The translations under genes and the position numbers were made by a program. A DNA stretch of 56,554 nt from Candidatus Nomurabacteria bacterium RIFCSPLOWO2_01_FULL_33_24 (GTDB taxonomy: Bacteria; Patescibacteriota; Minisyncoccia; Phycocordibacterales; MFUP01). Shown one piece after another: positions 40,110 through 56,554 of the stretch. Location: positions 1-56,554 of the forward strand of contig MFUP01000014.1 in assembly GCA_001785735.1 (NCBI GenBank), written 5' to 3'. The notes under the pieces were generated by a model. It had not been told where the DNA came from and ran no database searches. It saw nothing but the letters and a program-made list of their open reading frames with translations. Within the stretch, counting starts at the first letter, position 1. The number at the start of each line of letters is the position of its first letter.

Positions 40110-41651
40110 ATGGCTTTCTCGCGTGTTTATTCTGCTCAAACTAATTTATTAAAAGGACAAATTATTACTATTGAAACAGACCTTTCCCGAGGACTGCATT
40201 CATTTAATATTGTTGGTCTCCCAGACAAAGCGGTTGAGGAATCAAAAGACAGAGTTAGTTCAGCTATAAAAAATTCTGGTTATAAATCACCCAAAAGTAC
40301 TAATCAAAAAATAATTGTTTCTCTCGCTCCGGCTGATTTCAAAAAAGAGGGCCCTTTTTTTGATTTAGCAGTTGCTTTGGGCTATCTTTTATCTTCTGGG
40401 GAGATAAACTTTGCCCCGGAGAAAAAAATTTTTTTAGGGGAACTTTCCTTAAATGGGGAATTACAAAGTATCCGAGGAGCTCTTCCGTTGGTAGAAGAGG
40501 CAAAAAATAATGGATTTGAAGAAATTTTTTTACCTAAGCAAAATACTAAAGAGGCGGCTTTAATTGATGGCGTTAAAATTTTTGGAGCTAGTAATTTAAA
40601 AGAAGTAATTAATCATTTAAATTTAAAACAAGAAACAGATATTAATAAAAATTTTAAACTTTCTCCGGAAGAAAAAACTATTATTAAAAAGGGGATAAAA
40701 AAATATAACATAGATTTTTCTGATATTAGGGGACAAGAGGGGGCTAAAAGGGGATTGGAAATTGCGGCCGCTGGTGGCCACAATATTGCTATGACTGGAC
40801 CGGCAGGAACAGGAAAAACAATGTTGGCGAGAGTTTTTTCTCAGATTTTACCGGAATTAGATAACAACGAGATTTTAGAAATTACCAGCATCCACTCAAT
40901 AGCAGGAACCCTGAAAGATAATTTATTAACGGAGCCACCTTTTAGAGCTCCTCATCATACTGCTTCTCATGTTTCTATTGTTGGAGGAGGAGTTTACCCT
41001 AAACCAGGGGAAATAACTTTGGCTCATCGAGGAGTTCTTTTCTTGGATGAGTTCCCGGAGTTTGAAAAAAGAGTAATTGAATCACTTCGTCAACCATTAG
41101 AAGATAATATTGTTAATATTTCTCGAGCCAAAGGATCAGCTGTCTTCCCGTCAAATTTTATTTTAATCGCGGCCATGAATCCATGCCCTTGTGGCAATCT
41201 CGGATCTGAAAATAAAGAATGTATTTGTCGACCAAGCGATTTAGCTCGCTATCAAAGAAAACTCTCTGGACCAATTATGGATCGGATTGATATTTGGGTT
41301 CAAGTAGGAAATGTTGATTATCAAAAATTAGGAGGGGAGAGTTCTGGGGAAAAAACAAGAACAATTAAAAAAAGAGTGGCTGGGGCGCGGCAAAGACAAG
41401 AAAAGAGATTTAAAAAATTTAGACGAAATATAAAAAATAATAGCGCCATGAATGTTAAAGACATTACTAAAATTACTCCTCTTGGTATTGAAGTTAGAGA
41501 ACTTTTAAACCAAAGTGCGGAAAAATTAAGTTTGTCGGCTCGCGCTTATCACCGAGTGATAAAACTAGCTCGGACTATTGCTGATTTGGAAGAATCTGAA
41601 GAAATTAAAACCTCTCATCTTCTAGAAGCCTTACAATACCGCCCCCGATAG
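40110..41651 (+). CDS. YifB/ComM-family Mg-chelatase-like ATPase
   Basis: Lon-like N-domain, Walker A (GPAGTGKTMLA), Walker B (VLFLDEFPEF), and a C-terminal LSARAYHRVIKLARTIADLE segment. Confidence 0.88.
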   Translation: MAFSRVYSAQTNLLKGQIITIETDLSRGLHSFNIVGLPDKAVEESKDRVSSAIKNSGYKSPKSTNQKIIVSLAPADFKKEGPFFDLAVALGYLLSSGEINFAPEKKIFLGELSLNGELQSIRGALPLVEEAKNNGFEEIFLPKQNTKEAALIDGVKIFGASNLKEVINHLNLKQETDINKNFKLSPEEKTIIKKGIKKYNIDFSDIRGQEGAKRGLEIAAAGGHNIAMTGPAGTGKTMLARVFSQILPELDNNEILEITSIHSIAGTLKDNLLTEPPFRAPHHTASHVSIVGGGVYPKPGEITLAHRGVLFLDEFPEFEKRVIESLRQPLEDNIVNISRAKGSAVFPSNFILIAAMNPCPCGNLGSENKECICRPSDLARYQRKLSGPIMDRIDIWVQVGNVDYQKLGGESSGEKTRTIKKRVAGARQRQEKRFKKFRRNIKNNSAMNVKDITKITPLGIEVRELLNQSAEKLSLSARAYHRVIKLARTIADLEESEEIKTSHLLEALQYRPR

Positions 41652-41704: not shown

Positions 41705-42757
41705 CTATTGTGCCCAAGAGTTGTCTATTTCTGGATTTTTGGCGCCTCTAACCTCAAAGTGAAGATGTGGTCCGGTTGAGCGTCCGGTATTACCAGAATA
41801 ACCAACCACTTGCCCTTGGACAACATTAACTCCTTGGTTAATGGCGGTACTATTCAGGTGGGCATAGAGAGTTTTTGTTCCATTGTCATGATCAATCACT
41901 ATGTATTTACCATAACCACCATTATATCCTCTATCTCTGACTAAATTAACCTTTCCGGAGGCCGAAGCGACAACTGGGGTTCCAGTACTAACAGCAAGGT
42001 CAACAGCATTAAACCCATGAATTCCTTGTGATCTTCTTCCTCCAGAAACTGGACGAATATAATAATCAGAATATTCAAGACCTCCGCCCCAAGAAGATCC
42101 TTTTTTATTGGAAGCCTTAGTTGTCGTGCTAGACGCGCTTTTCACAGTAATTTTTACTCCTCCCGGGATAAAGATCTCTTCGCCAACAACCAAAGCTTTG
42201 GGATTAATATCATTAAAAATAGATATTTCTTCTATCCCTTCTTCGCTTACTTTAAAATTTTTAATAATACTCCCCAAAGTATCTCCTTTTTTGATTGTAT
42301 ATTTAACACCGTCAACAGGCGGGATTTCAAGTATCTGTCCTATTTTAATAGATCCTTTAGAACTAAGGTCGTTGGCCCAAAAAATCGTATTTTCTTTAAG
42401 ATCAAAGGCTTGAGCAATTTGAGAAATGGTATCTCCTTCTCTCACAATATAAAAATTTATTTTCCCCGGAGAGAAAGTTTCAGATTCTAAATCAGCAATT
42501 GTTCCTAATGGGCCACTAAATGGAATCAGGGTTGAATCAATAATAACAATATCTCCGCCACCAAAAGGCGCTATCATGTTTGGTATTTCTGTATCAAGTA
42601 AAAGAATTGACTGAGAATTAAAACTAATTTCTTCTGTGATTCTATTTTTTTTATCAAAATTAAAAATATTAACAGCCGAGGAAAAAAAGACCGCACTAAC
42701 CCCAAAAGGAATAATAATAATCAGGATCAAAACAAGAAAGCCCAAAGACGATCTCAT
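41705..42757 (-). CDS. LysM-domain M23 metallopeptidase (peptidoglycan hydrolase)
   Basis: N-terminal TM helix, two LysM-like repeats (YIVREGDTISQIAQAF; YTIKKGDTLGSII), and M23 motifs HGFNAVDLA and GPHLHFEVR. Confidence 0.88.
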   Translation of the reverse strand: MRSSLGFLVLILIIIIPFGVSAVFFSSAVNIFNFDKKNRITEEISFNSQSILLLDTEIPNMIAPFGGGDIVIIDSTLIPFSGPLGTIADLESETFSPGKINFYIVREGDTISQIAQAFDLKENTIFWANDLSSKGSIKIGQILEIPPVDGVKYTIKKGDTLGSIIKNFKVSEEGIEEISIFNDINPKALVVGEEIFIPGGVKITVKSASSTTTKASNKKGSSWGGGLEYSDYYIRPVSGGRRSQGIHGFNAVDLAVSTGTPVVASASGKVNLVRDRGYNGGYGKYIVIDHDNGTKTLYAHLNSTAINQGVNVVQGQVVGYSGNTGRSTGPHLHFEVRGAKNPEIDNSWAQ

Positions 42758-43002: not shown

Positions 43003-43794
43003 ATGAAAGCAAAGAAATCACTTGGGCAACATTTTTTAACATCCTTAAAAGTAGTGGGCGATATTGTTAGAGCTGGGAATATCAAAAAAGGTGATCTTGT
43101 CCTAGAAATTGGCCCGGGAAAGGGAGTTTTAACCAGGAAACTTCTTTTTTTGGCCAAGAAAGTAATAGCCATAGATAAGGATAGGGAATTAGTTTTTTTC
43201 CTTCAAGAAAAATTTAAAGGAGAAATAGAATCAAAAAGGCTAAAATTAATTCATCAAGACATATTAAATTACTCCCCGCCAAGTTACCCTTACAAACTAG
43301 TAGCCAACATTCCTTATTACATTACTGGTGAAATATTTAGAAAATTCCTTTCTTCTAATCACCAACCAAAAAGCATGATTTTATTGGTCCAGAAAGAAGT
43401 AGCCAGAAGGATAATGGCTCATGATGGCAAAGAAAGCATTTTATCTATTAGTATCAAGGCTTATGGCCAACCAAAATATCTGGGAGTAGTAAAAGCTAAA
43501 AATTTTAAACCAGAACCTAAAGTGGATTCAGCTATTTTATTAATAGACAAAATATCAAAAGATTTTTTTCAGAAGATGGGTGAACAAAAATTCTTTAGTA
43601 TTTTAAAAATAGGCTTCGCTCACAAAAGAAAAATGCTAATTGGAAATTTAGGGAAGATTGCTTCAAGAAAAAAACTAGAAGAAATATTTGAGAAATGCAA
43701 TCTTCCAAAAAAAATCAGGGCCGAAGATTTAAGCCCTGAAAATTGGAAGAGTTTGTTTCTTAATATTTTTACCAGGGGGAAGTCCCAAACATAG
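43003..43794 (+). CDS. rsmA: 16S rRNA (adenine1518/1519-N6)-dimethyltransferase
   Basis: KSLGQHFL, VLEIGPGKGVLT, LVANIPYYITGEI. Confidence 0.9.
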   Translation: MKAKKSLGQHFLTSLKVVGDIVRAGNIKKGDLVLEIGPGKGVLTRKLLFLAKKVIAIDKDRELVFFLQEKFKGEIESKRLKLIHQDILNYSPPSYPYKLVANIPYYITGEIFRKFLSSNHQPKSMILLVQKEVARRIMAHDGKESILSISIKAYGQPKYLGVVKAKNFKPEPKVDSAILLIDKISKDFFQKMGEQKFFSILKIGFAHKRKMLIGNLGKIASRKKLEEIFEKCNLPKKIRAEDLSPENWKSLFLNIFTRGKSQT

Positions 43795-44308
43795 TGACCT
43801 GGGTTAAATTAATAATGACTGGCGACACTGTTACTTCTGATGCTGGACCAACGCCATTTGTACAAGTACAAATACCTATTTGCGTTGGGGTTGAGGAAGA
43901 GTAAAGTCCTAATATCCATCTGTTAATGGCAATTGAGGGAATCCGTCGAGTTTTATCATCTGCTGAAGCGGGAATACAATAACCCTCTGAAGCAGTGGTT
44001 AATTTTAGTTTCGGCAAATCTGGTTTTAAGTTAAAAGTTCCAAGACCACATGAGACATCTACGGTAGGCTCCCAAAAAACTCCTTCGTTTCCACCACAAA
44101 TCAAAAGGGTCTCGCATTGTATTTTTTTTTCTTCTAAAATTAGGGCTGGTTTCATAATTATCTTCCCTCCAAATGGTGAGTTTCCTAAAGATCCTAACCC
44201 AGCGATAACATTATTTGTTCCTAAATTACTATTAGGGATAATAAAAACTAAAATTAATAATAGAACAACAGCGGGAATTAAAAAAAGAAATTTAAAATTT
44301 TTTTTCAT
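43769..44308 (-). CDS. hypothetical secreted Cys-rich protein
   Basis: Signal/anchor MKKNFKFLFLIPAVVLLLILVFII and eight Cys residues. The 3' end overlaps the rsmA 3' end by 26 nt (convergent). Confidence 0.5.
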   Translation of the reverse strand: MKKNFKFLFLIPAVVLLLILVFIIPNSNLGTNNVIAGLGSLGNSPFGGKIIMKPALILEEKKIQCETLLICGGNEGVFWEPTVDVSCGLGTFNLKPDLPKLKLTTASEGYCIPASADDKTRRIPSIAINRWILGLYSSSTPTQIGICTCTNGVGPASEVTVSPVIINLTQVTMFGTSPW

Positions 44309-44386: not shown

Positions 44387-45304
44387 ATGAATAAATATTT
44401 ACCAAGTAAAAAATTTATTGTCATTTTAAGTATTTTGATTGTTCTAAGTTTATTTTTTTTAATCATCAGTTATCAATCAGCAGGAAAGGTTAACTTTAAA
44501 AAGAAAAATCCAAGCAAAGAAATGTTGGCCATCCAGGGAAGGCCACTACCAATAAATATCACTCAGATAGACACCGATGGAGACGGAATAAAAGATTGGG
44601 AAGAATCTTTGTGGGGAACAAATCCTAAAAACAAAGATTCTGACGGAGATGGAATTTCTGACAATGAAGAAGTTGAAATAAAAAGAAAAGGGTTGGAAAT
44701 AAATTTAAATGAGGAAGGGGAAATTGAGAATTTGAATGAAACTGAAATATTTTCTCGTGAATTTTTTGCAACAGTTGTTGCTCTAAGTGAGTCTGGAAAT
44801 TTAAATGAAATAACAATTAATGAATTAGCAAATACTTTTGGTGAATCAATAATAAAACAAGAAATACCCGATACTTTCTATTCATCCGATTTAAAATTAA
44901 TTGGGGCGGGTCCCCTTGGAGCAAAAACATATTATAACCAAATAAAAACAATTACCGATAAATATAATAGCGAGGGAATTGGTTCAGAGTTAGAAATAGT
45001 TTCCCAAGCTTTATCTTCTCAAAATGTTCTTGTCCTTGAGAAACTTAAAGATATTAGTTTAGCTTATAAATCATTTGCTCAAGATGCCAGTAAAATAAGT
45101 ATTCCTTCTGATTTATTAAATACTCATTTAAGTTTAATAAATAATTATCAAAAAATTAGTCAGTCTATTAATGGAATGGGGTCTTTATTAGATAATCCAA
45201 TTATTGGATTATCTAATTTGAGGCAATACAAACAATATTACAGAGAACTTGAGAAGGTGGTTCTGGAATTAGAAGAATATTTTATTAAAAATGGTATAAT
45301 TTAG
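44387..45304 (+). CDS. membrane-anchored protein with thrombospondin-type-3-like Asp-rich calcium-binding repeats
   Basis: TM helix FIVILSILIVLSLFFLII, then DTDGDGIKDWEE...NPKNKDSDGDGISDNEE. First gene of the co-directional operon. Confidence 0.55.
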   Translation: MNKYLPSKKFIVILSILIVLSLFFLIISYQSAGKVNFKKKNPSKEMLAIQGRPLPINITQIDTDGDGIKDWEESLWGTNPKNKDSDGDGISDNEEVEIKRKGLEINLNEEGEIENLNETEIFSREFFATVVALSESGNLNEITINELANTFGESIIKQEIPDTFYSSDLKLIGAGPLGAKTYYNQIKTITDKYNSEGIGSELEIVSQALSSQNVLVLEKLKDISLAYKSFAQDASKISIPSDLLNTHLSLINNYQKISQSINGMGSLLDNPIIGLSNLRQYKQYYRELEKVVLELEEYFIKNGII

Positions 45305-45337
45305 GTAAGGCAGAAAGTTAATCTGTGATTTTTTGGT

Positions 45338-47305
45338 ATGTTAAATAAATTTAAAAAACAATTTTCAAAAAAGATAACTTTCCTGATTGTTATTTTTACT
45401 ATTTTTTTATTAGTATCTTTTCCAATCGCTCAAACCCCAAAGGTTCAAGCTCAAAGTGATACGGTTCCGGCGATTGGAACTATTACTTATTCGGACAAAA
45501 CCAACGAATCAGCTGTTTTGCTTGGATCCTGGGATAGTGGCGATAACGAAGATACTGAAATGAAAACTTATTTTGAATGGGGGCTAAGTGATGATTATGG
45601 CGAAAGAACTAATGAAATTTATCAAGGTCCCGGTTCGGGAATAGTTGGAACTACTATTATTGGACTCCATTCAAATCGCCCTTATCATTTTAGACTAGTG
45701 GGAGAAGTAGTTAACCAGGGGTCTTATGCCAACCAAACTTTCTATGGAGAGGATGTTTCTTTTGTTACTAATCAATATATTGGAGGGGGGGGGAAAAAAC
45801 CAGAAATTATTACTTTGGACACCGATTATATCAGCGATACTGCGGGAAATCTTAATGCTCATTTTGAGGATGAGAATTCTGGCCTTGATACTAATATTTA
45901 TTTTGAATATGGAACAAGCGATTCTTTCGGTAATATTACTGGAACAAATACTATGAGTGATCAAAGTGGCACAACCGCAATATATATCGAAAACTTACAT
46001 CCTGATAATCAGTATTATTTTAGAGCCGTTGGTTATAACGATAATGGGATAACTATTGGAAATACTTTAATTTTTATTACTTATAAGGCTGGCGATGAAG
46101 GAAGCGGAAGACCTCCATCAGAAAATGGAAGAGTCTATGTGGAAGGATCAGGAAATATCTTCAGACAAAAAACATACTCCGGGGGTATTGGCGATCCCTC
46201 AAGCACAGGAGCAAAGACTGTTGGGGGAATTGCTTTAGCTATTGCCAGCTGTGCCGGAGTAGGAGATATGATTGCCGATTTTATTGGTGGAATTGGTAAA
46301 GAAGCGGCAGATAAAGTGGGAAATGAATTGAAAGAAAAGACAAAAACAACAGTAGAAGATAAAGTGGGGAGTGAATTAACTACTCCGGCTGTCCCGACAA
46401 AAGAGGTGTCAAGCAGTGAAATATCAAAAGACACAGAAAAAAATAAAAAGGAAAATAAGGCATTAAATCAAAAGGAAAAATGTTTGGATGCCATTGCTTA
46501 TGAAGCCGCTCATCAGGTCCTTGATAAGTTAACCGCCAATACTGTTAATTGGATTAATTCTGGTTTTCAAGGAGGCGCTTTTTTCCAAAACCCAGATAAT
46601 TATTTTTCCGATTTGGCTGAAAGAGAACTTAATTATTTTATAAATATAATCGGGTATAACAATCAAGATTATCCTTTTGGAAGACGGTTGGCTGAAAATC
46701 TCGCTCGTAATGTTAGGAGAGGATTTGAACAAAATGCTAAATTTACCCTTCAGCAAGCAATGAGGGATAATCGTTCTTATACTGATTTTTACACTGATTT
46801 TTCTGCTGGTGGCTGGGATGCTTGGCTGATGATGACCCAATTACCCCAAAATAATCCTGTTGGTTTTAAAATAATAACTGACGAAGAATTGCAAAAACGA
46901 TTTGCCGGTCATTATGAATCTCCTTTTAATGCTATTAGAGAAAGTCTTAGAATAAACGGAGGTTTCTTCAACCAACAAAAATGCGTTGACCCGGTAGATT
47001 TTGAGGAATTAGATAAAAATAATTTTACAAAGGAAGACTTATCGTATGTTCAAAAAATAGCTTATGCTGGTAGCTCAAGCGAAGACCAAAAAAAGGCGGC
47101 TAGAGAAGATATTAGAAAACACACTTGCCTGCGATGGGAAACAAGGACTCCGGGGAATATGATCTCTGATGGGCTTAGTAATGCTTTGGGTTCAGATTTT
47201 AAACAAATGGAATTAGCCGATGAATTAAACGAATCAATCGCGGCGATAATGGATGCTTTGATTTACCGGGTTGTTGATGAAGGATTAAGTGAAATTAATT
47301 TGTAA
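45338..47305 (+). CDS. secreted protein with two FN3-like repeats and a C-terminal domain of unknown function
   Basis: Signal peptide ending in VQAQ. Repeated YFEWG/YFEYG ... L(H)xxxxYxFR(L/A)VG units, and a Gly-rich hydrophobic segment (VGGIALAIASCAGVGDMIADFIGGIG). Contains a G9 tract. Confidence 0.6.
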   Translation: MLNKFKKQFSKKITFLIVIFTIFLLVSFPIAQTPKVQAQSDTVPAIGTITYSDKTNESAVLLGSWDSGDNEDTEMKTYFEWGLSDDYGERTNEIYQGPGSGIVGTTIIGLHSNRPYHFRLVGEVVNQGSYANQTFYGEDVSFVTNQYIGGGGKKPEIITLDTDYISDTAGNLNAHFEDENSGLDTNIYFEYGTSDSFGNITGTNTMSDQSGTTAIYIENLHPDNQYYFRAVGYNDNGITIGNTLIFITYKAGDEGSGRPPSENGRVYVEGSGNIFRQKTYSGGIGDPSSTGAKTVGGIALAIASCAGVGDMIADFIGGIGKEAADKVGNELKEKTKTTVEDKVGSELTTPAVPTKEVSSSEISKDTEKNKKENKALNQKEKCLDAIAYEAAHQVLDKLTANTVNWINSGFQGGAFFQNPDNYFSDLAERELNYFINIIGYNNQDYPFGRRLAENLARNVRRGFEQNAKFTLQQAMRDNRSYTDFYTDFSAGGWDAWLMMTQLPQNNPVGFKIITDEELQKRFAGHYESPFNAIRESLRINGGFFNQQKCVDPVDFEELDKNNFTKEDLSYVQKIAYAGSSSEDQKKAAREDIRKHTCLRWETRTPGNMISDGLSNALGSDFKQMELADELNESIAAIMDALIYRVVDEGLSEINL

Positions 47306-49929
47306 TGAAAAAATTTTTAATACCAATATTAATAATCACAATTTTTCTAGGGGGAGTTTTGGTCCCGATTGGTTTTAAATTTGATTCTCAAAACAAAATT
47401 GCTGTTGAAAAAAATATCGCTTGGGCTTTTCTAGCCGATATAACTGATATTACTGTTTCAGAAACGGGGGCTTCGGCAGTAATAACGGGGGAATTCACCA
47501 CTGCTCCTCGTTCTTATTTTGTGAAAGTGCGTAATACTACCACGAATGATGAAAAAAAATATCCTCTTAGTGTTACTAATTTAAAATTTTTAATAACAGT
47601 TACATTAACTCAAGGCCAGTCATATGAAGCGGATGTGTGGCAAGTAGATAATGCCCAAGGGGGGGCTTCGAGAGCAAGTCATTCTGTTCAATTTGAGGCA
47701 GTTTATTCAACCCCCGAAGAAAAAGCGACCCAAAGAGCAAATAATTTCATCGGGGACGAATTAGATTGTGGTTACACAACAATCTTTACAGATTGTCTAG
47801 TGCTTGGACTTTATAATATAGTTTATGTTCCTTCTTCTTGGATATTGGCCGGGGGAGGAAAAATATTTGATGTTTTTGCCAGTATCTCTTTAGATTCAAG
47901 AATGTATGGGGATTCTACTTTTGTGGAAGAGGGGTGGAAAATTGTTAGAGATATCGCTAACATCTTTTTTATTTTTGGTCTTCTTTGGATTGCCATTAAC
48001 ATTATTTTGGGGTTAAGTTCTCAGGTGAATCCTAAAAAATTATTACCTACTTTAATTATTGTCGCTCTTTTAATAAATTTTAGTTTATTTTTTTCTAAAG
48101 TAATTATAGATTCCTCCAATATTATTGCCAAAATTTTTTATAATCGGATTGAGGTTACTGGAGCCGTCGGAGATAGTTTTACCTCGGCTGGAGAACAAAG
48201 TTTATCTCTGGGAATTACCAAAGGATTGGGAGTCCAAAAAATTTTTTCGCCTGAGACAATAGAAGCCCTAAAAGCTGATCCCAAAATGAATACTGATGGG
48301 GATATTAGTTTGGGAGCGCTGGCTCTTATTATTATTTTGGGAATATTTGTTAATCTTTCAGCTGCTTGGACGCTTATTATTGCCGGCGTCTTATTCTTAA
48401 GCCGAATATTAAGTTTGTGGATAGTAATGATCTTCTCTCCTTTGGCTTTTGCTTCTTACGCTGTTCCGGGAATAAGTTCAATGATGGAGGAGGTGGGACA
48501 CCAAAAATGGTGGACTAATCTTATTAACCTTTCTTTTCTGGCTCCCATTTTTATCTTCTTTATTTACTTAATTATCCTGATGATTAATAGCGACTTTCTA
48601 TCTGGTTTGTTAAATACAGGAGGAGATTTTACTTACATAATGGTTATTATTCTTTTACAATTCTTATTCATTCTCTTTTTATTAAAAATGGCCAAGCAAA
48701 CAGCGGAAAAATTAGCCGGGGAAATGGGATCAACTTTTGTAAAAGCAGCCAAAGCTGTTGGGGGGGTAGCCCTGGGAGCAGCTACCGGCGGAGCCGCTTT
48801 AATGGGAAGAGCTAGTCTTGGAAGAGTGGGAAGTATGCTTGCTAAAAGCGAAAGACTCAAAAGATTTGCTTCTGGAACAGACAAGGAAGGCAATGAAGTC
48901 AAACGTGGTGCTTTTGGGAAACTAGCTCAATTTGGCGCTAAAGGACTTAGAAAAACATCTATTGCTTCCGCCAAAGGAAGTTGGGATATCCGTCGAACAG
49001 CTGTGGGGGGAGAATTGTCTAAACAAACAGGATTGAATCTTGACAATAAAATTGTCAGTGGGGTTGGTTTAGGGACCAAAACAACCACCGGCGGTTGGAC
49101 AGAGGCAACAAAAAGAAAAGCCCAAAAAATAAAGGAGGAACAAAAATCATATGGGATGGGAAAGGGAGCGGCAACAGGACAAGATAAAAAGGTTAGTCAA
49201 TGGAAAAATGAAAAACAATCAACTGATGATGCTCGGGAGGAAGAGAAAAAAGAGAAAAAAGATAAATACGAAGAAGAATATAATAAAGCTCGAGAAGAAG
49301 AAAAAAGAGATGTTGTTTATGACCCTGATAGAGAATATAACGAGGAAGAGTTTAGGAAAAAATATGAATCTGAACATGGAAAAGCTGATAGTTGGGAAGA
49401 AAAAGACGAGGAACAATTTAAACAAAAATATGAAACTGGCGGTAAAACATATATTGGAGAAACTAGCGCCAGGCCGAAAACTTCCAAGGAAATTAATGAA
49501 GCTCGGAGAGAAAGTTTTACCAAGCAACAAACCGGTGATATCTATGATAAAAGCGGAAAAATAATCCCGGGAAAAGCTTTTAAGGAATTTGGTAAAGACT
49601 TAATAAAAGAAACCTTAAAAGGGATGGCTCTGGGGGCGGCTGTTGGAACAGTTATTCCAGGAGCAGGAACTATGGTTGGCGGTGCTTTTGGCGCGGGAGC
49701 AGGATTTTTGAAAGGATTAAAAGATTTACTAATTAATCCGTCTGGGAGAGAACGAGAAGTAATTGACGCTCTTGAAAGTGAAGATAGCGATTCAAAAAAA
49801 ATTCTTGATGATTTAAAGAAAAAAATAAAGGAAGAAGAAAAAGAGAAAAAAGAAGAAAAAGAAGAAAAAGAAGAAAAAGAGAAAAAAGAAGAAAAAGAAG
49901 AAAATAATAAAAATGAAAACATTAATTAA
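47305..49929 (+). CDS. VirB6/TrbL-like polytopic membrane protein with Gly-rich and Lys/Glu-rich C-terminal tail
   Basis: Several TM helices in the central ~300 aa. The start overlaps the upstream stop (TAATG). The call rests on topology and on neighbouring PrgI-like and VirB4-like genes. Confidence 0.5.
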   Translation: MKKFLIPILIITIFLGGVLVPIGFKFDSQNKIAVEKNIAWAFLADITDITVSETGASAVITGEFTTAPRSYFVKVRNTTTNDEKKYPLSVTNLKFLITVTLTQGQSYEADVWQVDNAQGGASRASHSVQFEAVYSTPEEKATQRANNFIGDELDCGYTTIFTDCLVLGLYNIVYVPSSWILAGGGKIFDVFASISLDSRMYGDSTFVEEGWKIVRDIANIFFIFGLLWIAINIILGLSSQVNPKKLLPTLIIVALLINFSLFFSKVIIDSSNIIAKIFYNRIEVTGAVGDSFTSAGEQSLSLGITKGLGVQKIFSPETIEALKADPKMNTDGDISLGALALIIILGIFVNLSAAWTLIIAGVLFLSRILSLWIVMIFSPLAFASYAVPGISSMMEEVGHQKWWTNLINLSFLAPIFIFFIYLIILMINSDFLSGLLNTGGDFTYIMVIILLQFLFILFLLKMAKQTAEKLAGEMGSTFVKAAKAVGGVALGAATGGAALMGRASLGRVGSMLAKSERLKRFASGTDKEGNEVKRGAFGKLAQFGAKGLRKTSIASAKGSWDIRRTAVGGELSKQTGLNLDNKIVSGVGLGTKTTTGGWTEATKRKAQKIKEEQKSYGMGKGAATGQDKKVSQWKNEKQSTDDAREEEKKEKKDKYEEEYNKAREEEKRDVVYDPDREYNEEEFRKKYESEHGKADSWEEKDEEQFKQKYETGGKTYIGETSARPKTSKEINEARRESFTKQQTGDIYDKSGKIIPGKAFKEFGKDLIKETLKGMALGAAVGTVIPGAGTMVGGAFGAGAGFLKGLKDLLINPSGREREVIDALESEDSDSKKILDDLKKKIKEEEKEKKEEKEEKEEKEKKEEKEENNKNENIN
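49827..49904 (+). repeat. 78-nt pure polypurine tract, (GAAGAAAAA)-type, encoding (EEK)n
   Basis: No pyrimidine on the + strand between t49826 and t49905. Confidence 0.9.
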
Positions 49930-49942
49930 TAATTAAAAAGAT

Positions 49943-50635
49943 ATGAATAATCAAATTGCCCAAGCTATAAAACAAAGATATGATAATATGCCAGAGGATA
50001 TAAAACAAATTATTGTTTCATCTGATTATCAAGATGGTTTAGTCAATATTAGTAAAAAATTTAAATTAAACATTGAACAACTTGGTGTTTTAGAAATAAA
50101 TACTACTATGGTTTTATTAGGAATCATTAACCCGAATAAACTTCAAGAAGAACTTGAAAAAGAACTAAACATTAATAGTGAAAAAACTAAAGGTATTACT
50201 AAGGAAATTAATGATCAGATTTTTCATAAAGTTAAATGGTCATTAGAAAAAATATTTAACAATTCTGAAGATAAGATATCTAAAGAATCTTTAATAGAAA
50301 AAAATAAACAAAAAAATCAACCTCCTGTTAATTTACCCGTTGGAGAACCGGGTAAGACAATTAATATTTTAGAAAAAGATTTGGCTCATCAGGTGAAAAC
50401 TGATGAAGATTTAGAAGAGAGGGAAGAAATATTAAGAAGAATAGAGGATTCTCCAATTGATAAAAAAGAAAAGTGGGATAAAAACTTTGAAATTAAAAAC
50501 AAAGAAGAATCTGGCATTATTGAAGAAAAAATGAAAAGTTTATTTAGGGTCCCAAGCCAAGAAACAGATTATTCAAAGGATAATAAAAAAGATATTTATA
50601 AGGGGAAAGATCCTTATAAAGAAACTATAAAGTAA
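49943..50635 (+). CDS. hypothetical charged protein
   Basis: 230-aa ORF tightly packed in the operon. No motif recognised. Confidence 0.5.
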   Translation: MNNQIAQAIKQRYDNMPEDIKQIIVSSDYQDGLVNISKKFKLNIEQLGVLEINTTMVLLGIINPNKLQEELEKELNINSEKTKGITKEINDQIFHKVKWSLEKIFNNSEDKISKESLIEKNKQKNQPPVNLPVGEPGKTINILEKDLAHQVKTDEDLEEREEILRRIEDSPIDKKEKWDKNFEIKNKEESGIIEEKMKSLFRVPSQETDYSKDNKKDIYKGKDPYKETIK

Positions 50636-50636
50636 A

Positions 50637-51050
50637 ATGCGATTTAGAGTGCCACAATTTATTGATATTGAAGACAAGGTTTTTGGTCCTTTTAGCTTTA
50701 AACAATTTGTTTATTTAGCTGGTGGAGGAGGTCTTTCTTATGTTATTTTTAAAATTTTGCCACTTTTTATTGCTATCTTTCTTATTTTGCCGGTGATAGC
50801 TTTATCTTTGGCCCTAACATTTTATAAAGTAAACAATAAACCATTTATTGCTGTTTTGGAATCTTATTTTAAATATCTTATTCAGGGAAAATTATATATT
50901 TGGAGAAAAGAAAGAAAAATAACAAAAAAGAAAGAGGTTGATAAAATTTCAAAAGAAACATCTCAAGTCCCCGGATTATCTGGAAGTAAGTTGAAAGAAA
51001 TTTCTTGGAGTTTAGATGTTTTAGATATCAATGAAGATAATAACCAATAA
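50637..51050 (+). CDS. PrgI-family / VirB3-like small membrane protein
   Basis: MRFRVPQFIDIEDKVFGPFSFKQFVYLAGG, then two TM helices. This matches the PrgI-family pattern from Gram-positive conjugation systems (recalled from memory) and sits directly upstream of VirB4-like genes. Confidence 0.6.
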   Translation: MRFRVPQFIDIEDKVFGPFSFKQFVYLAGGGGLSYVIFKILPLFIAIFLILPVIALSLALTFYKVNNKPFIAVLESYFKYLIQGKLYIWRKERKITKKKEVDKISKETSQVPGLSGSKLKEISWSLDVLDINEDNNQ

Positions 51051-51053
51051 TTT

Positions 51054-51689
51054 ATGGCTTTAGGATCTAAAACAACTCAAAATTTTGTTCCTATTAAAGA
51101 GGTCCGAGGGGGAATTATTATTTTAAAAGATGGAGGAATGAGAACTATCTTAATGGCCTCTTCTACTAATCTGGCCCTTAAGTCAGAGGAGGAACAAAAA
51201 GCAATTATTTCCCAATTCCAAGCTTTTCTTAATTCTCTCGATTTTTCGACTCAAATTGTTATTCAATCAAAAAAATTAGATATAAAACCATATTTAATTT
51301 TATTAGAAAATAGAATGAAAGAACAAGAAGAGCCTCTTCTAAAAATTCAAACTAGAGAATATATTGAATTTATTCGAAGTTTTACGGAAGAAGTAAATAT
51401 TATGACAAAAAACTTTTATGTTGTTGTTCCCTATACCTTGGCCCCGTTTAATAAGGGAGGTGGCTTAAGAGAAAAATTTCTAGGTAGTTCCCAAAAAAAT
51501 AATCTTGGGGAAAAAATTTCTAGTTTTGAGGAGAGCAGAAGCCAGCTAGAACAAAGAATGGAGGTTATTCAACAAGGTCTTTCTAGGGTGGGAATTCAAA
51601 CAATCCGATTAGGAACAGAGGAGGTGGTTGAATTATTTTATAAAATATTTAACCCCGGCGACACCACTCAATCAATAAAAATAGAGTAA
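51054..51689 (+). CDS. VirB4/TraE N-terminal-domain-like protein (separate ORF)
   Basis: QNFVPIKEVRGGIIILKDGGMRTILMASSTNLALKSEEEQKAIISQFQAFLNSLDFSTQIVIQSKK resembles the extreme N-terminus of Firmicutes VirB4-type conjugation ATPases (from memory). Confidence 0.5.
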   Translation: MALGSKTTQNFVPIKEVRGGIIILKDGGMRTILMASSTNLALKSEEEQKAIISQFQAFLNSLDFSTQIVIQSKKLDIKPYLILLENRMKEQEEPLLKIQTREYIEFIRSFTEEVNIMTKNFYVVVPYTLAPFNKGGGLREKFLGSSQKNNLGEKISSFEESRSQLEQRMEVIQQGLSRVGIQTIRLGTEEVVELFYKIFNPGDTTQSIKIE

Positions 51690-51691
51690 TT

Positions 51692-53740
51692 ATGAATATT
51701 CTTGATAAATTATTTAAAAAAAATGCAGGCAAGGATGAAGATTCTATTTCTCCGGTTCTTCCTCAAGAAATATATGAAGCGGCCACTCTTGAACTTCAAG
51801 ATATTATTGCCCCTTCAGCTTTAAAAATAGAAGCTAAATCAATCAATCTTGGAGAAAAACTCGCTAGAACTTTTTTTGTTATTTCTTACCCAAGATATTT
51901 AACCGATAATTGGTTCTCTCCAATTATTAATTTGGATAAGATTTTTGATGTTTCTATTTTTATTCATCCAATTGAAACATCAAAAATCTTGCGTCAATTT
52001 CAAAAAAAAGTAGCGGAGGTTCAGAGTCAAATTAACGTCCGAGAAGGAAAAGGGTTGGTTCGCGACCCCAAACTTGATACTGCTTATCAAGACTTAGAAT
52101 CTCTTCGGGATCAGCTTCAGCAAGCCACGGAAAAAATGTTTGAGGTTGGACTTTATATTACAATTTATGCCGAAAATGAATCTGAGCTTTATAAAACTGA
52201 AACTGAAATTAAATCTATTTTGGAAGCTAAATTAGTTTATATCAAACCAGCTCTTTTTCAACAAGAAGAAGGATTTAAAAGTACTATTCCGATTGGAACT
52301 GATCTTCTTAGGGTAAACCAAAAATTAAATTCGGAACCGTTGTCTAGTCTTTTCCCTTTTATTTCTTTTGATCTTACTTCGGATAAAGGGATTCTTTATG
52401 GGGTCAACCGACATAATTCAAGTTTAGTAATTTTTGATCGGTTTTCACTTCCCAATTTTAATTCGATTATTCTCGCCACCGCGGGAGCGGGAAAATCATA
52501 CGCAACCAAGTTGGAAATTTTAAGAACCTTAATGTTTGATACTGAAGTTATTGTGATTGACCCAGAAAGAGAGTATGAATACTTGGCAGAAGCAATTGGG
52601 GGTCGTTATTTTAATATTTCTCTTTCTTCTGATCATCATATTAATCCATTTGATTTAGCAATTCCTCGGGAAGACGAGACTGCTTCAGATGTTTTGAGAT
52701 CAAATATTATTAATTTAGTCGGTCTTTTTAGGATTATGTTAGGAGGGTTAACCCCCGAAGAAGATTCCCTAATTGACAGAGCAATCTCTGAAACCTATGC
52801 CATAAAAGATATTACCGTTGATTCAGATTTTTCTGATATTGAACCACCTCTTTTGTCTGATTTTGAAATGGTTTTATCGGGGATGGAGGGAACAGAATCT
52901 ATTATTCAAAGACTTTCCAAATATACTAGGGGAAGTTGGAAAACCTTTATTAACCAACCAAGCAATATTGATATTAATAAAAAATTTGTTGTTTTTTCAG
53001 TTAGAGATATGGAGGATGAATTGAAGCCGGTGGCGATGTATATAGTTACTCATTATATTTGGACAGCCATTAGAAAAGAATTGAAAAAAAGATTATTGGT
53101 GGTTGACGAGGCTTGGTGGATGATGAAATCGGAAGATACTGCTTCTTTTCTTTACGGGATTGCTAAAAGAGGTAGAAAATATTATTTAGGTTTAGCAACT
53201 ATTACTCAAGATGTTGGTGATTTTATGGAATCACCTTATGGTATTCCGATTATTACCAACTCGTCTATTCAAGTTCTTCTTAAACAATCTCCTAGCACCA
53301 TTGATGTTCTTCAAAAAACATTTAATTTAACCGATGAAGAAAAATATCTTATTTTGGAAGCTGGTCTTGGAGAAGGAATTTTCTTTGCCGGCCTGAAACA
53401 TATCGCCATAAAAACCATTGCTTCTTATACAGAAGATCAAATTATTACTTCGGACCCATCTCAAATTTTAGCAATTGAGAAAGCAAAAAAAGAACTGGAA
53501 AGAAATGAGGAAATATCAAATTCAGACTCAGAAAGGTTGCCAGCTGGTCAAACATGGATTAACGAACCAACCCCGGCTATTGAAGAAAAAACTATCAAAA
53601 AAGAACCTGAAAAACCCGAAGAAATACCTAAACCAAAGGATGAAAAACCAATCGTCAATCCAAGTAGAACCTCAAAATTAGAAGAGACCAAGAAAGGAAT
53701 AGAGGAGGAGTTAAAAATTCTTGAAGAAAAGTTTAAGTAG
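51692..53740 (+). CDS. VirB4/TraC-like type IV secretion ATPase
   Basis: IAPSALKIE...ARTFFVISYPRYL..WFSPIINLD segment, Walker A (ATAGAGKSYATK), Walker B (LLVVDEAWWMM), and ATITQDVGDF. Confidence 0.8.
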   Translation: MNILDKLFKKNAGKDEDSISPVLPQEIYEAATLELQDIIAPSALKIEAKSINLGEKLARTFFVISYPRYLTDNWFSPIINLDKIFDVSIFIHPIETSKILRQFQKKVAEVQSQINVREGKGLVRDPKLDTAYQDLESLRDQLQQATEKMFEVGLYITIYAENESELYKTETEIKSILEAKLVYIKPALFQQEEGFKSTIPIGTDLLRVNQKLNSEPLSSLFPFISFDLTSDKGILYGVNRHNSSLVIFDRFSLPNFNSIILATAGAGKSYATKLEILRTLMFDTEVIVIDPEREYEYLAEAIGGRYFNISLSSDHHINPFDLAIPREDETASDVLRSNIINLVGLFRIMLGGLTPEEDSLIDRAISETYAIKDITVDSDFSDIEPPLLSDFEMVLSGMEGTESIIQRLSKYTRGSWKTFINQPSNIDINKKFVVFSVRDMEDELKPVAMYIVTHYIWTAIRKELKKRLLVVDEAWWMMKSEDTASFLYGIAKRGRKYYLGLATITQDVGDFMESPYGIPIITNSSIQVLLKQSPSTIDVLQKTFNLTDEEKYLILEAGLGEGIFFAGLKHIAIKTIASYTEDQIITSDPSQILAIEKAKKELERNEEISNSDSERLPAGQTWINEPTPAIEEKTIKKEPEKPEEIPKPKDEKPIVNPSRTSKLEETKKGIEEELKILEEKFK

Positions 53741-53786
53741 AGAGGAAAATGGTGTTTTAATAATGTTATAATATATAATAATTGTA

Positions 53787-54584
53787 ATGATTGAAGATAA
53801 AAATAAAAAAAATACAAAGGGAGAGGAAAAAAACGAAAAAAAAGTGAAGACTATTAGAACTTTTGCCTCTGATATGGCTAAGGCTGTGGAAAATCAGAAA
53901 CGAGACTTAAAAAAAACAACCATAGATACTTTATCTGCTAATAATGTGGTTTCTTCTTTTTCCCAAACACCAGAATCAGCAACAACTTCTTCGCCGTCAG
54001 TTGTTAATAATATTTCTAATCAATCATTTGATAGCGAGGAACAAAAAAAAGAAAATGAAAAAATTTTGAAAAATTCCGGGATAGAGGTAATTAATCAAGA
54101 AATAGATAAACCACCTCAAGAAACAAAAATTACTGCTCCTTTTATAAAAAAAGTCCCGGCGGGAGAAACAAAAGAGAAAATAAAAGAATTTAAAAAAGCC
54201 AAAGAAAATATTGGGGAAGAAATAAAACAACTAGAAGAGGAGTTTAATAAAGAAATTGGGGAAAACAAAAAAACAACAAAGTCGCCTAAAAAAGATGAGT
54301 CTGTTAGTTTGGAAGAAAAAGCCAAGGAACTAAAAAGAACTAAGGATAAAATTGAGGAAGAAATAAAAAGTCTTGAAGAAAATGCCAAGAAAGAATTAAC
54401 TGGGTTAAAAGAAACAAAGAAAAAAATTGAGGGGGCCATAAATAAAATAAAAGAATTAGAGAAAAATAAAAATAAAATTGAGGAAGAAATAAATAAAATA
54501 AAAGAATTAGAGGAAAATAAAAAGAAAATTGAGGAAGAAATAAAAAGCCTTGAGGGGGGTTTAGGAGGGGTTTTTGATGATTAA
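53787..54584 (+). CDS. Lys/Glu-rich coiled-coil protein with N-terminal RT[YF]xSD motif
   Basis: TIRTFASDMAKAV motif near the N-terminus, and repeated KIEEEIKSLEE-type heptads. Confidence 0.55.
   Translation: MIEDKNKKNTKGEEKNEKKVKTIRTFASDMAKAVENQKRDLKKTTIDTLSANNVVSSFSQTPESATTSSPSVVNNISNQSFDSEEQKKENEKILKNSGIEVINQEIDKPPQETKITAPFIKKVPAGETKEKIKEFKKAKENIGEEIKQLEEEFNKEIGENKKTTKSPKKDESVSLEEKAKELKRTKDKIEEEIKSLEENAKKELTGLKETKKKIEGAINKIKELEKNKNKIEEEINKIKELEENKKKIEEEIKSLEGGLGGVFDD
54438..54539 (+). repeat. 51-nt tandem duplication (2 copies) inside the coiled-coil gene
   Basis: ataaataaaataaaagaattagag(a/g)aaaataaaaa(t/g)aaaattgaggaagaa repeated head-to-tail. Encodes INKIKELE(K/E)NK(N/K)KIEEE. Confidence 0.85.
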
Positions 54585-54589
54585 AAATA

Positions 54590-55597
54590 ATGATTAAATT
54601 AATAAAAAATAATTTAAAAATTAATATTATAAGAGAATTATTAATAATTTCTATTGGTGTTTTTATATTATTAGCAATCCCTGTTAGGGCCCAATATGAA
54701 TCAGATATTCCAATTAAAATGACCCCCGAAATCCCAGGAGCTTATGAAAGAACAACTTTAAAAATAGAGAGTTATTTAATTGATACTGAGACTACTAAAA
54801 TATCGTGGTCTCAGGACGGAAAACTTAAACTTTCTGGAATAGGAGAAGAGAGTTTTTCTTTTACCACAGGAGAAGTTGGCTCAAAAACAACCATAAAAAC
54901 CGTGGTGGCCACTAGCGGTGGTTCAATAAGTAAAACAACTATTATCCAGCCAGCTGAGATTGATTTACTTTGGCAAGCAACTGATTCTTATGTTCCCCCT
55001 TTTTATAAAGGAAAGGCTCTCCCTTCGTCAGAGGCAAAAATTAAGGTTGTCGCTATCCCAAACGTTAAAGTTAATAATCGTGGTTTGGGGGTAAATGATT
55101 TTGTTTTTAATTGGAAAAAAAATTACAACATTATGCCGGGATCTTCTGGTTTTGGTAAAGATTCTTTCAACTTAACAAGTAATATTTTAAATGATGCTGA
55201 AAAAATCACCTTAAAAATAGCTTCTCTTGACGGGAAGTATGGGGCTCAAAACAATATTTCTATAAAAACAACGGATCCTAAAATTGTTTTTTATGAGAAT
55301 AATCCTATTCGTGGAATAAATTATGATAATGCTTTAAATAACGGTTTTTCTATGACCAGCGAAGAAACTACTATTGTGGCTGAACCTTATTTTTTCTCTC
55401 CTTCCGATATTTATCTTCGTGATTATAAATATCAGTGGTTAATTAATAACCAAACAATAGAAATCCCTAGTCCTCAAAATATATTGACTGTTCGTAGAGG
55501 AGAAGGGGGAGGGGGGGTAACAACTATTTCTTTATCAATGGAAAATATGATGAAACTTTTTCAATCAGCTAAAGCCTTTATGTCAATTAATTTGTAA
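54590..55597 (+). CDS. hypothetical membrane-anchored or secreted protein
   Basis: 335-aa ORF with an N-terminal TM helix (LLIISIGVFILLAIPV) and a beta-rich body. Contains a G5-A-G7 tract. Confidence 0.55.
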   Translation: MIKLIKNNLKINIIRELLIISIGVFILLAIPVRAQYESDIPIKMTPEIPGAYERTTLKIESYLIDTETTKISWSQDGKLKLSGIGEESFSFTTGEVGSKTTIKTVVATSGGSISKTTIIQPAEIDLLWQATDSYVPPFYKGKALPSSEAKIKVVAIPNVKVNNRGLGVNDFVFNWKKNYNIMPGSSGFGKDSFNLTSNILNDAEKITLKIASLDGKYGAQNNISIKTTDPKIVFYENNPIRGINYDNALNNGFSMTSEETTIVAEPYFFSPSDIYLRDYKYQWLINNQTIEIPSPQNILTVRRGEGGGGVTTISLSMENMMKLFQSAKAFMSINL

Positions 55598-55600
55598 AAA

Positions 55601-56554
55601 ATGAAAATATTTAATTTACAACTGAAAAATATTTTTATTATGATTGTTTTAGTGGTTATCTTAAGTGGTAGTTTTTTAATTCCATCAACTTTTGCCCAAA
55701 TCGCAAGAACCATAACACTTAATTCTGAAACTATCACTATTGTAGCCGGGCTTCCTAGGGTTACTATTTCAGGAACAATAACTGGATCTGACCCTCAAAA
55801 CTTAACTTTAATATTAACTTATTCTACCTCTTATTCTTATTCTTATCCTTCTTCTATTGTTAGTTTGACCCCTGACACCAGCGGAGTGTTTAGTCATTCT
55901 ATTACCAGTGGTTTGGCTTTAGGAACAACATATTATTATAAAATAGAAACAGCTGGATTTTCAAAAAATGATACATTTCACACCCTTGGAGGGGGAACAC
56001 CTCCTCCTCCTCATGCTGATGTTTACCAACTCTTAGCTCCCCTTCCTGATGTAAGTGGTGGTTTAGAAGAAATAGACACAAATGACCCGGCTGCTCTTGG
56101 AAAATATTTTAATCTTATTTTTAGTCTCTTTATTGGGGTCGCTTCTGTTTTGGCAGTTATCATGATTGTTATTGCTGGTATTCAATATATGTCTACTGAC
56201 GCTGTTACTGGTAAGGAGGAAGGGAAAAAAAAGATTCAAGACGCTATTTTGGGGTTAGTTCTTATTTTGGGAGCTTGGCTGATTTTACACACCATTAATC
56301 CAGATTTAGTCAATTTAAGTTTAGGGGTAGAGGGGGTAAGTATCGAAGTTGACGACACCCCTCAAGTGGCAATTGGCGGTCAATATTGCAGAAAAAGTGG
56401 TGGCCCTTATCAAGAGGGGTCTTCATGGACAAACACCCGTGGACTCATCCCAATATTACCAACAAGAGTTACTTTAAACCACGGAGGAGAAACAATTGGA
56501 GGAAATTGTACTACGGTTGGACAACCAAGTTGTACAAGCACGATAGGATTAGAC
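55601..56554 (+). CDS. multidomain protein containing a VirB2/TrbC-like T4SS pilin domain, partial (3' end beyond right window edge)
   Basis: Absent from the ORF track because it is edge-truncated. Manual translation from ATG 55601 is open to the last base (318 codons). It has a signal peptide and an FN3-like domain (TTYYYKIET). Then comes YQLLAPLP...LGKYFNLIFSLFIGVASVLAVIMIVIAGIQYMSTDAVTGKEEGKKKIQDAILGLVLILGAWLILHTINPDLV: two hydrophobic helices around a charged loop, as in CPR-type T4SS pilins (from memory). A Cys-containing extension follows. Confidence 0.65.
   Translation, partial: MKIFNLQLKNIFIMIVLVVILSGSFLIPSTFAQIARTITLNSETITIVAGLPRVTISGTITGSDPQNLTLILTYSTSYSYSYPSSIVSLTPDTSGVFSHSITSGLALGTTYYYKIETAGFSKNDTFHTLGGGTPPPPHADVYQLLAPLPDVSGGLEEIDTNDPAALGKYFNLIFSLFIGVASVLAVIMIVIAGIQYMSTDAVTGKEEGKKKIQDAILGLVLILGAWLILHTINPDLVNLSLGVEGVSIEVDDTPQVAIGGQYCRKSGGPYQEGSSWTNTRGLIPILPTRVTLNHGGETIGGNCTTVGQPSCTSTIGLD

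Follow-up and report, generated by a model that had tools for sequence, protein, structure and literature searches.

What does a conjugation-type secretion machine do in a chromosome where no DNA-processing genes stand beside it? The question is raised by an operon at positions 44387-56554 of a 56,554-nucleotide (nt) stretch of DNA from Candidatus Nomurabacteria bacterium RIFCSPLOWO2_01_FULL_33_24 (contig MFUP01000014.1), which is hereafter called the window. An original prediction, made from the letters of the window, described a minimal Gram-positive-style type IV secretion system (T4SS). We find that the operon is almost certainly a relaxase-less chromosomal T4SS of the Patescibacteria type. 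Taken as a whole, the explanation that we consider best, and probable, is a Patescibacteria T4SS that lies beside the replication origin, is not a conjugative element and works by the mechanism proposed below. The Patescibacteria T4SS has already been published, and the original reading is right but already known: that reduced, probably episymbiotic bacteria use a chromosomal T4SS for something other than conjugation is a published conclusion for Patescibacteria (PMC12102498, PMC10633639, PMC12857230). The analysis adds one new lead, a modest one, which is a possibly modular hairpin protein in the place of a plain pilin.

Patescibacteria make up a large share of bacterial diversity, and most of them appear to be attached to other microbes. 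The chromosomal T4SS is among the few machines demonstrated to be essential for the attached lifestyle, in one cultured species. The window provides a further well-preserved example and independently confirms the lack of a relaxase and the position at the origin side.

Organization and extent of the operon

The open reading frame (ORF) calls place nine complete + strand ORFs in 44387-56554, followed by a tenth that is open at the window end. The ten genes are co-directional, with spacing from a 1-nt overlap to a 46-nt gap. The original prediction had claimed ten co-directional genes with overlaps or short gaps; its coordinates match the ORF calls, and the observation of the ten-gene operon is confirmed. 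Gene 10 starts at 55601, and the window ends inside the operon. The continuation was read from a 116-kb metagenomic scaffold (L001) that encodes a VirB4 identical to the gene 7 product of the window. The called genes around virB4 on L001 have the same lengths as those of the window, gene 3 excepted. The genes are as follows.

Gene 1, 44387-45304, + strand: 305 amino acids (aa); N-terminal membrane anchor, TSP3 repeats and a C-terminal domain of unknown fold.
Gene 2, 45338-47305, + strand: 655 aa; signal/anchor, weakly FN3-like N-terminal region, charged linker and conserved C-terminal domain.
Gene 3, 47305-49929, + strand: 874 aa; polytopic membrane protein, candidate 'extended VirB6' channel subunit.
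Gene 4, 49943-50635, + strand: 230 aa; soluble, highly charged, with a C-terminal DPY motif.
Gene 5, 50637-51050, + strand: 137 aa; PrgI/VirB3-like, two membrane helices.
Gene 6, 51054-51689, + strand: 211 aa; TrsD-like, a separate ORF equivalent to the VirB4 N-terminal domain.
Gene 7, 51692-53740, + strand: 682 aa; VirB4-family ATPase without the usual N-domain.
Gene 8, 53787-54584, + strand: 265 aa; Lys/Glu-rich coiled-coil-like protein.
Gene 9, 54590-55597, + strand: 335 aa; membrane helix and three tandem Ig/FN3-like domains.
Gene 10, 55601-56554, + strand: first 318 of 410 aa in the window; VirB2-like hairpin protein.
Gene 11, 15157-16464 of L001, past the window end, co-directional: 435 aa; membrane anchor and conserved domain.

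A VirB4 motor plausibly encoded in two pieces

The assignments on which the T4SS identity depends all pass hidden Markov model (HMM) tests. The gene 7 product, predicted to be the VirB4 ATPase, scores 372 bits against the VirB4 CD1110 family (NF045971; cut-off 325). The predicted PrgI/VirB3-like gene 5 product scores 42.5 bits against PrgI (PF12666; E 1e-10, cut-off 27), and the pilin-domain protein of gene 10 scores 32.3 bits against T4SS_pilin (PF18895; cut-off 26.6).

Gene 7 also matches P-loop_TraG (90 bits) and the Mbov_0397 VirB4 family (263 bits; equivalog cut-off 590), and its catalytic motifs are intact, with Walker A GAGKS at aa 265 (~52484) and Walker B VVDEAW at aa 470 (~53099). 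Its C-terminal tail (aa 604-682) is not conserved. The protein shares 26% identity with PrgJ of Enterococcus faecalis pCF10 over PrgJ residues 227-772 (E 1e-42). The alignment begins only at PrgJ residue 227, which indicates that the N-domain is missing from gene 7.

Gene 6 lies directly upstream of virB4 and plausibly supplies this missing N-domain, as judged from profile matches. Its residues 4-200 align with positions 11-200 of the 201-position TrsD/TraD model NF041427 (E 2.5e-8), with a score of 34 against a curated cut-off of 200. It also matches positions 102-233 of the VirB4_plasma model (E 4.8e-14) and positions 2-119 of the CD1110 model (E 5e-7), both under the curated cut-offs, and a precomputed annotation assigns it to PF26593 (TraC-like). 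The original description of gene 6 as a VirB4 N-domain-like ORF thus stands, on matches below cut-off. Gene 5 has two hydrophobic segments within aa 27-65 by hydropathy and an additional HMM match to TcpE (E 7e-4); it is expected to tether VirB4 to the membrane.

Genomic context

On L001, gene 11 is followed by jag, yidC, yidD and rnpA, these four on the opposite strand, and then by dnaA, dnaN and a gene for a penicillin-binding protein. With dnaA and dnaN downstream, the operon therefore adjoins the chromosomal replication origin. The 44 kb upstream in the window mostly encode housekeeping functions, including NusA, H+-pyrophosphatase, a sigma factor, Prs, trigger factor, ClpP, RNase Y, HU, CCA-adding enzyme, an Xer-sized recombinase, S15, PNPase, ComM, a LysM-M23 peptidase and KsgA (ksgA at 43003-43794). 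Housekeeping flanks, as had been predicted, are thus found on both sides.

Gram-positive conjugative elements typically carry members of the VirB4, PrgI and TrsD families, and the window ends inside the operon. Both points favor an ordinary integrative and conjugative element (ICE) or integrated plasmid, whose relaxase, coupling protein and integrase would lie just outside the window. Immediately downstream, where the original prediction had allowed for these three genes, the longer contig runs instead into gene 11, jag, yidC, rnpA, dnaA and dnaN, and L001 shows no relaxase, coupling ATPase or integrase within 10 kb. Among the called genes of the window with Pfam annotation, no relaxase, type IV coupling protein (T4CP) or replication gene was found. 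Searches by tblastn with pCF10 PcfC (VirD4), the PcfG relaxase, the Tn916 FtsK-like coupling protein, MobT, PrgK and PrgL gave no match in the window, in L001 or in the 80 related loci described below. A single tyrosine recombinase is present (34677-35564); it has the size of a Xer protein and is encoded 9 kb upstream, surrounded by housekeeping genes. The GC content of the operon is not distinct from that of the flanks. Its borders are ksgA on one side and jag-yidC-rnpA-dnaA on the other, with the cluster at the same place in 80 species-level genomes; 37 of 40 loci keep the dnaA-side synteny, and VirB4 identity across the 80 species is 70-84%. Part of a mobile element is, on this evidence, a most improbable identity for the operon.

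The context inspected spans ~66 kb with the operon inside it, from 44 kb upstream as far as 10 kb downstream. For this region the predicted lack of a relaxase, coupling ATPase, oriT-like repeat and replication gene holds, with inverted repeats of the oriT kind represented by short repeats that are all inside genes; it does not carry over to a whole-genome absence of a coupling ATPase. Promoter and terminator scans returned counts at chance level. An Rfam scan of the window detected four tRNAs only, none of them near the operon. The prediction of a chromosomal, non-conjugative T4SS is supported by the downstream context, the conserved synteny and the literature, and we conclude that the cluster is very probably non-conjugative.

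Conservation across Paceibacteria

Relatives were collected by a scan of one genome per species, which yielded 570 confirmed VirB4 relatives; the loci compared here are the best 80 of these 570. They come from metagenome-assembled genomes of Paceibacteria, Nomurabacteria and Parcubacteria, a few of them deposited as 'bacterium', and include the complete RAAC4_OD1_1 genome. Across these 80 species-level genomes the gene order 1-2-3-4-5-6-7-9-10-11 recurs. A check for a conserved operon across candidate phyla radiation (CPR) genomes, suggested with the original prediction, is thereby answered for Paceibacteria: the order is kept. Homologues were counted as follows.

Gene 1: 38/80 loci, always first in the order.
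Gene 2: 46/80 loci, at the same position.
Gene 3: 64/80 loci, upstream of prgI/virB4.
Gene 4: 44/80 loci.
Gene 5: 76/80 loci, 44-66% identity.
Gene 6: 80/80 loci, 51-66% identity.
Gene 7: 80/80 loci.
Gene 9: 77/80 loci.
Gene 10: 71/80 loci.
Gene 11: 67/80 loci.

The distal genes are counted less often largely because many loci are cut off. Where both flanks are complete (40 loci), the cluster is followed by yidC, dnaA and dnaN in 37, and ksgA precedes it in 23. Taken together, the conserved order and the dnaA synteny favor vertical inheritance over a mobile element; these sequence comparisons indicate a vertically inherited chromosomal core system.

Comparison with known systems

Quinonero-Coronel et al. 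(2025) found that the Patescibacteria VirB4 clade is monophyletic and nested in MPF-FATA, with TrsD, PrgI/VirB3, VirB6 and VirB2-like genes close to virB4 (PMC12102498). They report that relaxases are almost absent in Patescibacteria, that VirD4-like genes occur in most genomes but mostly far from virB4, and that the Paceibacteria cluster is close to dnaA, dnaN, rnpA, ksgA and rpmH (PMC12102498). The window shares several of these properties: its VirB4 stands with TrsD-like, PrgI/VirB3-like and VirB2-like genes, its cluster contains no relaxase or T4CP, and it has the chromosomal position beside dnaA, dnaN, rnpA and ksgA found in Paceibacteria. The Patescibacteria T4SS derives from the single-membrane conjugation machinery of the MPF-FATA class, of which the window carries a Paceibacteria/Nomurabacteria-like version. 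Two differences are apparent. The clade of the window has one multi-domain hairpin protein, not an array of small pilins, and the accessory genes 1, 2, 4, 9 and 11 are without named counterparts.

In a transposon sequencing study, Wang et al. (2023) showed that a homologous cluster (SEML1_0006-0019) is essential for Southlakia epibionticum to grow as an epibiont; this cluster has pilins and lacks coupling and relaxase proteins (PMC10633639). Essentiality has been demonstrated in Saccharimonadia only, not in the clade of the window.

The Prg/Pcf system of pCF10, the MPF-FATA prototype, resembles the window in having a PrgI-like protein upstream of a CD1110-family VirB4 and in its single-membrane architecture without an outer-membrane core. 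However, pCF10 has PcfC (VirD4), the PcfG relaxase, the PrgK hydrolase, PrgL (VirB8-like) and the PrgB adhesin, which have no detectable counterparts in the window. In addition, it has no pilin, and PrgJ keeps the N-domain in the same polypeptide, unlike the split genes 6 and 7. A separate TrsD-type ORF that matches the VirB4 N-domain (NF041427) is found in the Trs system of the staphylococcal plasmids pGO1 and pSK41. In Mycoplasma ICEs, Mbov_0395 is matched by the hairpin protein of the window and Mbov_0397 by its VirB4, both below the equivalog cut-offs. Unlike the window, pGO1/pSK41 and the Mycoplasma ICEs are mobile conjugative elements with relaxases.

Gene 3 as a candidate channel subunit

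The product of gene 3 has an N-terminal signal/anchor, an extracytoplasmic domain and ~7 hydrophobic segments within aa 164-460 (~8 in all, by hydropathy), followed by a hydrophilic tail of ~400 aa that is Gly-zipper and Lys/Glu-rich. The original prediction called it a VirB6/TrbL-like polytopic protein. The polytopic part of this description is correct, while the VirB6/TrbL identity finds no HMM support: gene 3 and 40 relatives gave no TrbL/VirB6 or other match in Pfam or among PDB sequences. A comparison with pCF10 PrgH by hhalign returned nothing (2% probability), and precomputed PF19590 flags on a few relatives were not reproduced at E<=10. The VirB6-like Orf15 of Tn916 is matched weakly by hhalign (E 1.3e-3, probability 19%, 155 columns).

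The 3´ end of the gene (49816-49917) contains an (EEKEK)n repeat with a 9-nt unit, whose copy number differs in frame between assemblies of the same population. The resulting products are 874, 871, 868 and 862 aa long.

The hairpin protein of gene 10

As read from L001, the complete gene 10 product is 410 aa long. It consists of a signal peptide, an Ig/FN3-like domain, a Pro-rich linker, a YxLLAPLP motif, a VirB2-like two-helix hairpin (aa 166-234, nt 56096-56302) and a Cys/His-rich C-terminal domain of ~155 aa that begins at ~nt 56363. In addition to the T4SS_pilin match, which agrees with the predicted VirB2/TrbC-like pilin domain, there are weaker matches to TrbC (PF04956; E 0.004) and to the Mbov_0395 pilin-like family (E 5e-7, 29 bits; equivalog cut-off 40). 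An AlphaFold2 model was built on a 97%-identical relative (P0001). It contains helices at 167-200 and 204-234 with a predicted local distance difference test score (pLDDT) near or above 90; the C-terminal domain is mostly at pLDDT 85-97, and the N-terminal Ig-like region is of low confidence.

The two-helix hydrophobic hairpin is shared with the VirB2/TrbC pilins of Gram-negative bacteria. In contrast to these pilins, which are ~100 aa long, gene 10 has an Ig/FN3-like domain before the hairpin and a Cys/His-rich domain after it. Just before the hairpin, the Y-x-L-L-A-P-L-P motif (aa 142-149, ~56024-56047) is near-invariant in the 71 orthologues, with L145 invariant, and the domains on both sides of it vary. 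The motif could be a processing or docking site.

The C-terminal domain carries invariant H, D, E and HxH residues and four Cys. It belongs to a large unannotated family: a search of 1.84 billion representatives gave 1778 clusters at E<=1e-3, and in this family the domain nearly always sits after a pilin hairpin. The H..D, E and HxH motifs led us to consider a LAS/M15 zinc peptidase (VanY-like), a candidate that was rejected: the resemblance is at motif level only. Searches of PDB sequences with phmmer and profiles gave nothing significant, nor did hhalign against VanY and M15_4 tails, and Foldseek searches of PDB and BFVD with the whole model returned no significant support for a peptidase fold.

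Possibly interchangeable C-terminal cassettes in the orthologues

T4SS_pilin is matched by 64 of the 71 syntenic gene 10 orthologues. Unlike VirB2/TrbC pilins, many of these 71 proteins also carry a recognized peptidoglycan enzyme domain.

NlpC/P60: 11 orthologues.
VanY: 8 orthologues.
YkuD: 5 orthologues.
Amidase_5: 4 orthologues.
SLT variants: 4 orthologues.
Peptidase_M15_4: 3 orthologues.
Amidase_2: 1 orthologue.
Extensin-like_C: 1 orthologue.

The post-hairpin tails fall into at least 17 unrelated clusters, of which the type found in the window is the largest (14 members). The nearest VirB4 neighbor has the same tail type in 10 of 57 cases, compared with 6.1 expected by chance. VirB4 identity averages 0.820 whether the proteins compared have the same tail type or not, and different tail types are found at up to 94.9% VirB4 identity. 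By these measures, tail type does not appear to track the relatedness of VirB4, a marker whose phylogenetic resolution is low at ~82% identity. A single hairpin gene is present in 69 of 73 loci, which indicates that the tail variation does not arise from confusion of paralogues. Fusions of a pilin hairpin with an enzyme are not mentioned in PMC12102498, and none was found in further full-text literature searches.

These comparisons lead us to a tentative proposal, which we hold to be possible rather than probable: in this Paceibacteria clade the single 'pilin' may be a modular host-contact protein, in which the VirB2 hairpin stands between an Ig-like N-domain and a C-terminal cassette, and not a plain pilus subunit. 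The exchange of cassettes would resemble the module shuffling of phage lysins or polymorphic toxins. If this is true, the T4SS would present cutting heads specific for the host wall, which would help to set host range, and the interchangeable cell-wall enzyme domains would point to breaching or remodeling of the wall at the contact site.

Accessory proteins

Gene 1, predicted as an anchor protein with calcium-binding repeats, scores 41 bits against Pfam TSP3_bac (cut-off 25), with the calcium-binding repeats at aa 59-98 and one hydrophobic segment at aa 10-28, in agreement with that description. Gene 2 had been described as a secreted protein with FN3 repeats. It does have a signal/anchor; the FN3 part is weak, with a sub-threshold fn3 match only (E 0.015). 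Its C-terminal domain contains conserved Cys, Trp and Gly, and the orthologues range from 356 to 1094 aa. Profiles of genes 1 and 2 gave no match to PDB sequences.

Gene 4 is the charged protein that had been expected, with 28% Lys+Glu and no predicted hydrophobic segment, and is probably cytoplasmic. In its DPY motif, D223 and Y225 are invariant. No match was found to PDB sequences with the gene 4 profile, or to pCF10 PrgF.

Gene 9 was modeled with AlphaFold2 (mean pLDDT 92, predicted template modeling score 0.78). One helix (aa 3-27) is followed by all-beta domains, which is the anchored beta-rich protein of the original prediction. Foldseek aligns the model with Ig/FN3 tandems in the PDB (such as sidekick, SiiE adhesin and fibronectin, down to E 6e-9). 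On this model, gene 9 is predicted to be an extracytoplasmic stalk or adhesin-like surface component. It was also considered, being best placed for this role, as the missing VirB8/TcpC-like component and rejected, since a membrane helix with three Ig-like sandwiches is not the NTF2 fold. The conserved domain of gene 11 has invariant W, C, D and G residues; it gave no Pfam match, and its profile matched no PDB sequence.

Gene 8 differs from the other members. Lys/Glu make up 39% of its residues, the HMM matches are weak and of the coiled-coil type only, and a tandem repeat with a 51-nt unit lies within the gene (54423-54544). Just 1 of the 80 loci has a detectable homologue, gene 9 elsewhere following directly after virB4. 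The coiled-coil character given in the original prediction is therefore weakly supported, whereas a role as a conserved component of the operon is not: gene 8 is a lineage-specific insertion.

Proposed mechanism and cargo

The mechanism proposed here is drawn from homologous systems, with the genes alone being read in the window. VirB4 (gene 7) and the TrsD-like N-domain (gene 6) would form the motor, which would dock on the membrane via gene 5 and on the polytopic gene 3 product, standing in for VirB6 as the membrane channel. ATP hydrolysis would drive the extraction of the gene 10 hairpin protein and its assembly into a short conduit, or a short pilus, that crosses the wall of the cell itself. 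An extracellular scaffold in contact with the host would consist of the TSP3, FN3-like and three-Ig proteins together with the gene 11 product. The enzyme-like C-terminal domain of the hairpin protein would cut or remodel peptidoglycan locally, either its own or that of the host.

Several points weigh against this scheme. For the Paceibacteria systems, every mechanistic step is drawn by analogy. Position, topology, tail and a single weak profile match do no more than suggest that gene 3 acts as VirB6. The search for a VirB8-like component gave none, as gene 9 is Ig-like, PrgL has no tblastn match, and the profiles of genes 1, 4 and 11 match no PDB sequence. The C-terminal domain of the window's own gene 10 can be linked to no enzyme family, and at 410 aa, with bulky domains at both ends, the hairpin protein may not polymerize as VirB2 does. 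Finally, given the distribution reported in PMC12102498, a VirD4-like gene is likely to be present elsewhere in the genome.

No relaxase and no adjacent coupling ATPase are present, which suggests that the cargo is probably not self-DNA. By analogy, its most likely task is to export proteins to the host or to import macromolecules, such as nucleic acids, from the host, in support of epibiotic life. A role at the host interface is, on balance, favored. Reviews describe the function of the T4SS as unknown and name effector delivery and nucleotide/DNA import as the two favored ideas (PMC11665869, PMC12857230); we give protein export and host-macromolecule import equal weight.

A machine for DNA or nucleic-acid import, like ComB of Helicobacter pylori or Ced of archaea, would supply nucleotides from the host. 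ComB and the Sulfolobales Ced share with the window a T4SS core without a relaxase, and an import role has also been proposed for Patescibacteria. The lack of a relaxase and T4CP, which makes self-DNA export unlikely, fits this function. Reviews base their proposal of this role on S. epibionticum, in which comEC is dispensable and the T4SS essential. For a cultured relative, a 2026 preprint describes tubes at the host interface, ties VirB4 and PNPase to feeding on host RNA and proposes this mode of nutrition; in the window, PNPase (36663-38834) and ComM (40110-41651) are encoded 2-8 kb upstream of the operon. Gene 7 also matches the CedB model (E 4e-8), but with 32 bits against a cut-off of 700 this is a generic VirB4 similarity. 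Moreover, no DNA-binding or nuclease component is recognizable in the operon by HMM, and the neighboring LysM-M23 gene (41705-42757, - strand) is syntenic in 0 of 40 relative loci. Nucleic-acid import is, in our estimate, a possible function of the machine and an unlikely one.

The same low confidence applies to the export of effector proteins that manipulate or damage the host, as in the VirD4-less Ptl system of Bordetella or the VirB system of Brucella. Such T4CP-less protein translocators are a precedent, Wang et al. favor protein export or another capacity for the Saccharibacteria system (PMC10633639), and the cell-wall enzyme domains on hairpin orthologues could act on the host. However, no candidate effector genes are recognizable in or beside the operon. 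Moreover, each extracytoplasmic product of the operon comes with a Sec-type N-terminal signal or anchor of its own, so that a T4SS is unneeded for the export of those products.

Finally, the operon might encode a surface filament or adhesion structure that serves host attachment only and transports no substrate. Anchored surface proteins of the Ig/FN3/TSP3 kinds abound in it, classical systems use VirB4 as the ATPase of pilus biogenesis, and tubular structures have been seen in the cultured relative. On the other hand, Patescibacteria already attach by type IV pili, and a prepilin-type N_methyl protein is encoded in the window. A function beyond adhesion is suggested by the large polytopic protein, which is channel-like, and by the extremely high conservation of VirB4, and we therefore regard attachment alone as improbable, even less likely than either direction of transport.

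Other features of the window

A single ORF of 4629 aa (724-14613, - strand) has no Pfam match at E<=0.01. Its product is a giant orphan protein, of a type that CPR genomes frequently encode.

Between ksgA and gene 1, a 179-aa ORF (43769-44308, - strand) shares 26 nt with the 3´ end of ksgA. No Pfam family matches it, and 1 of the 80 loci has a homologue; its product has an N-terminal hydrophobic segment and six Cys.

A 205-aa protein encoded at 28003-28623 (- strand) carries the prepilin-type N-terminal methylation motif PF07963, which indicates that components of a type IV pilus or of a type II secretion-like system are also encoded nearby.

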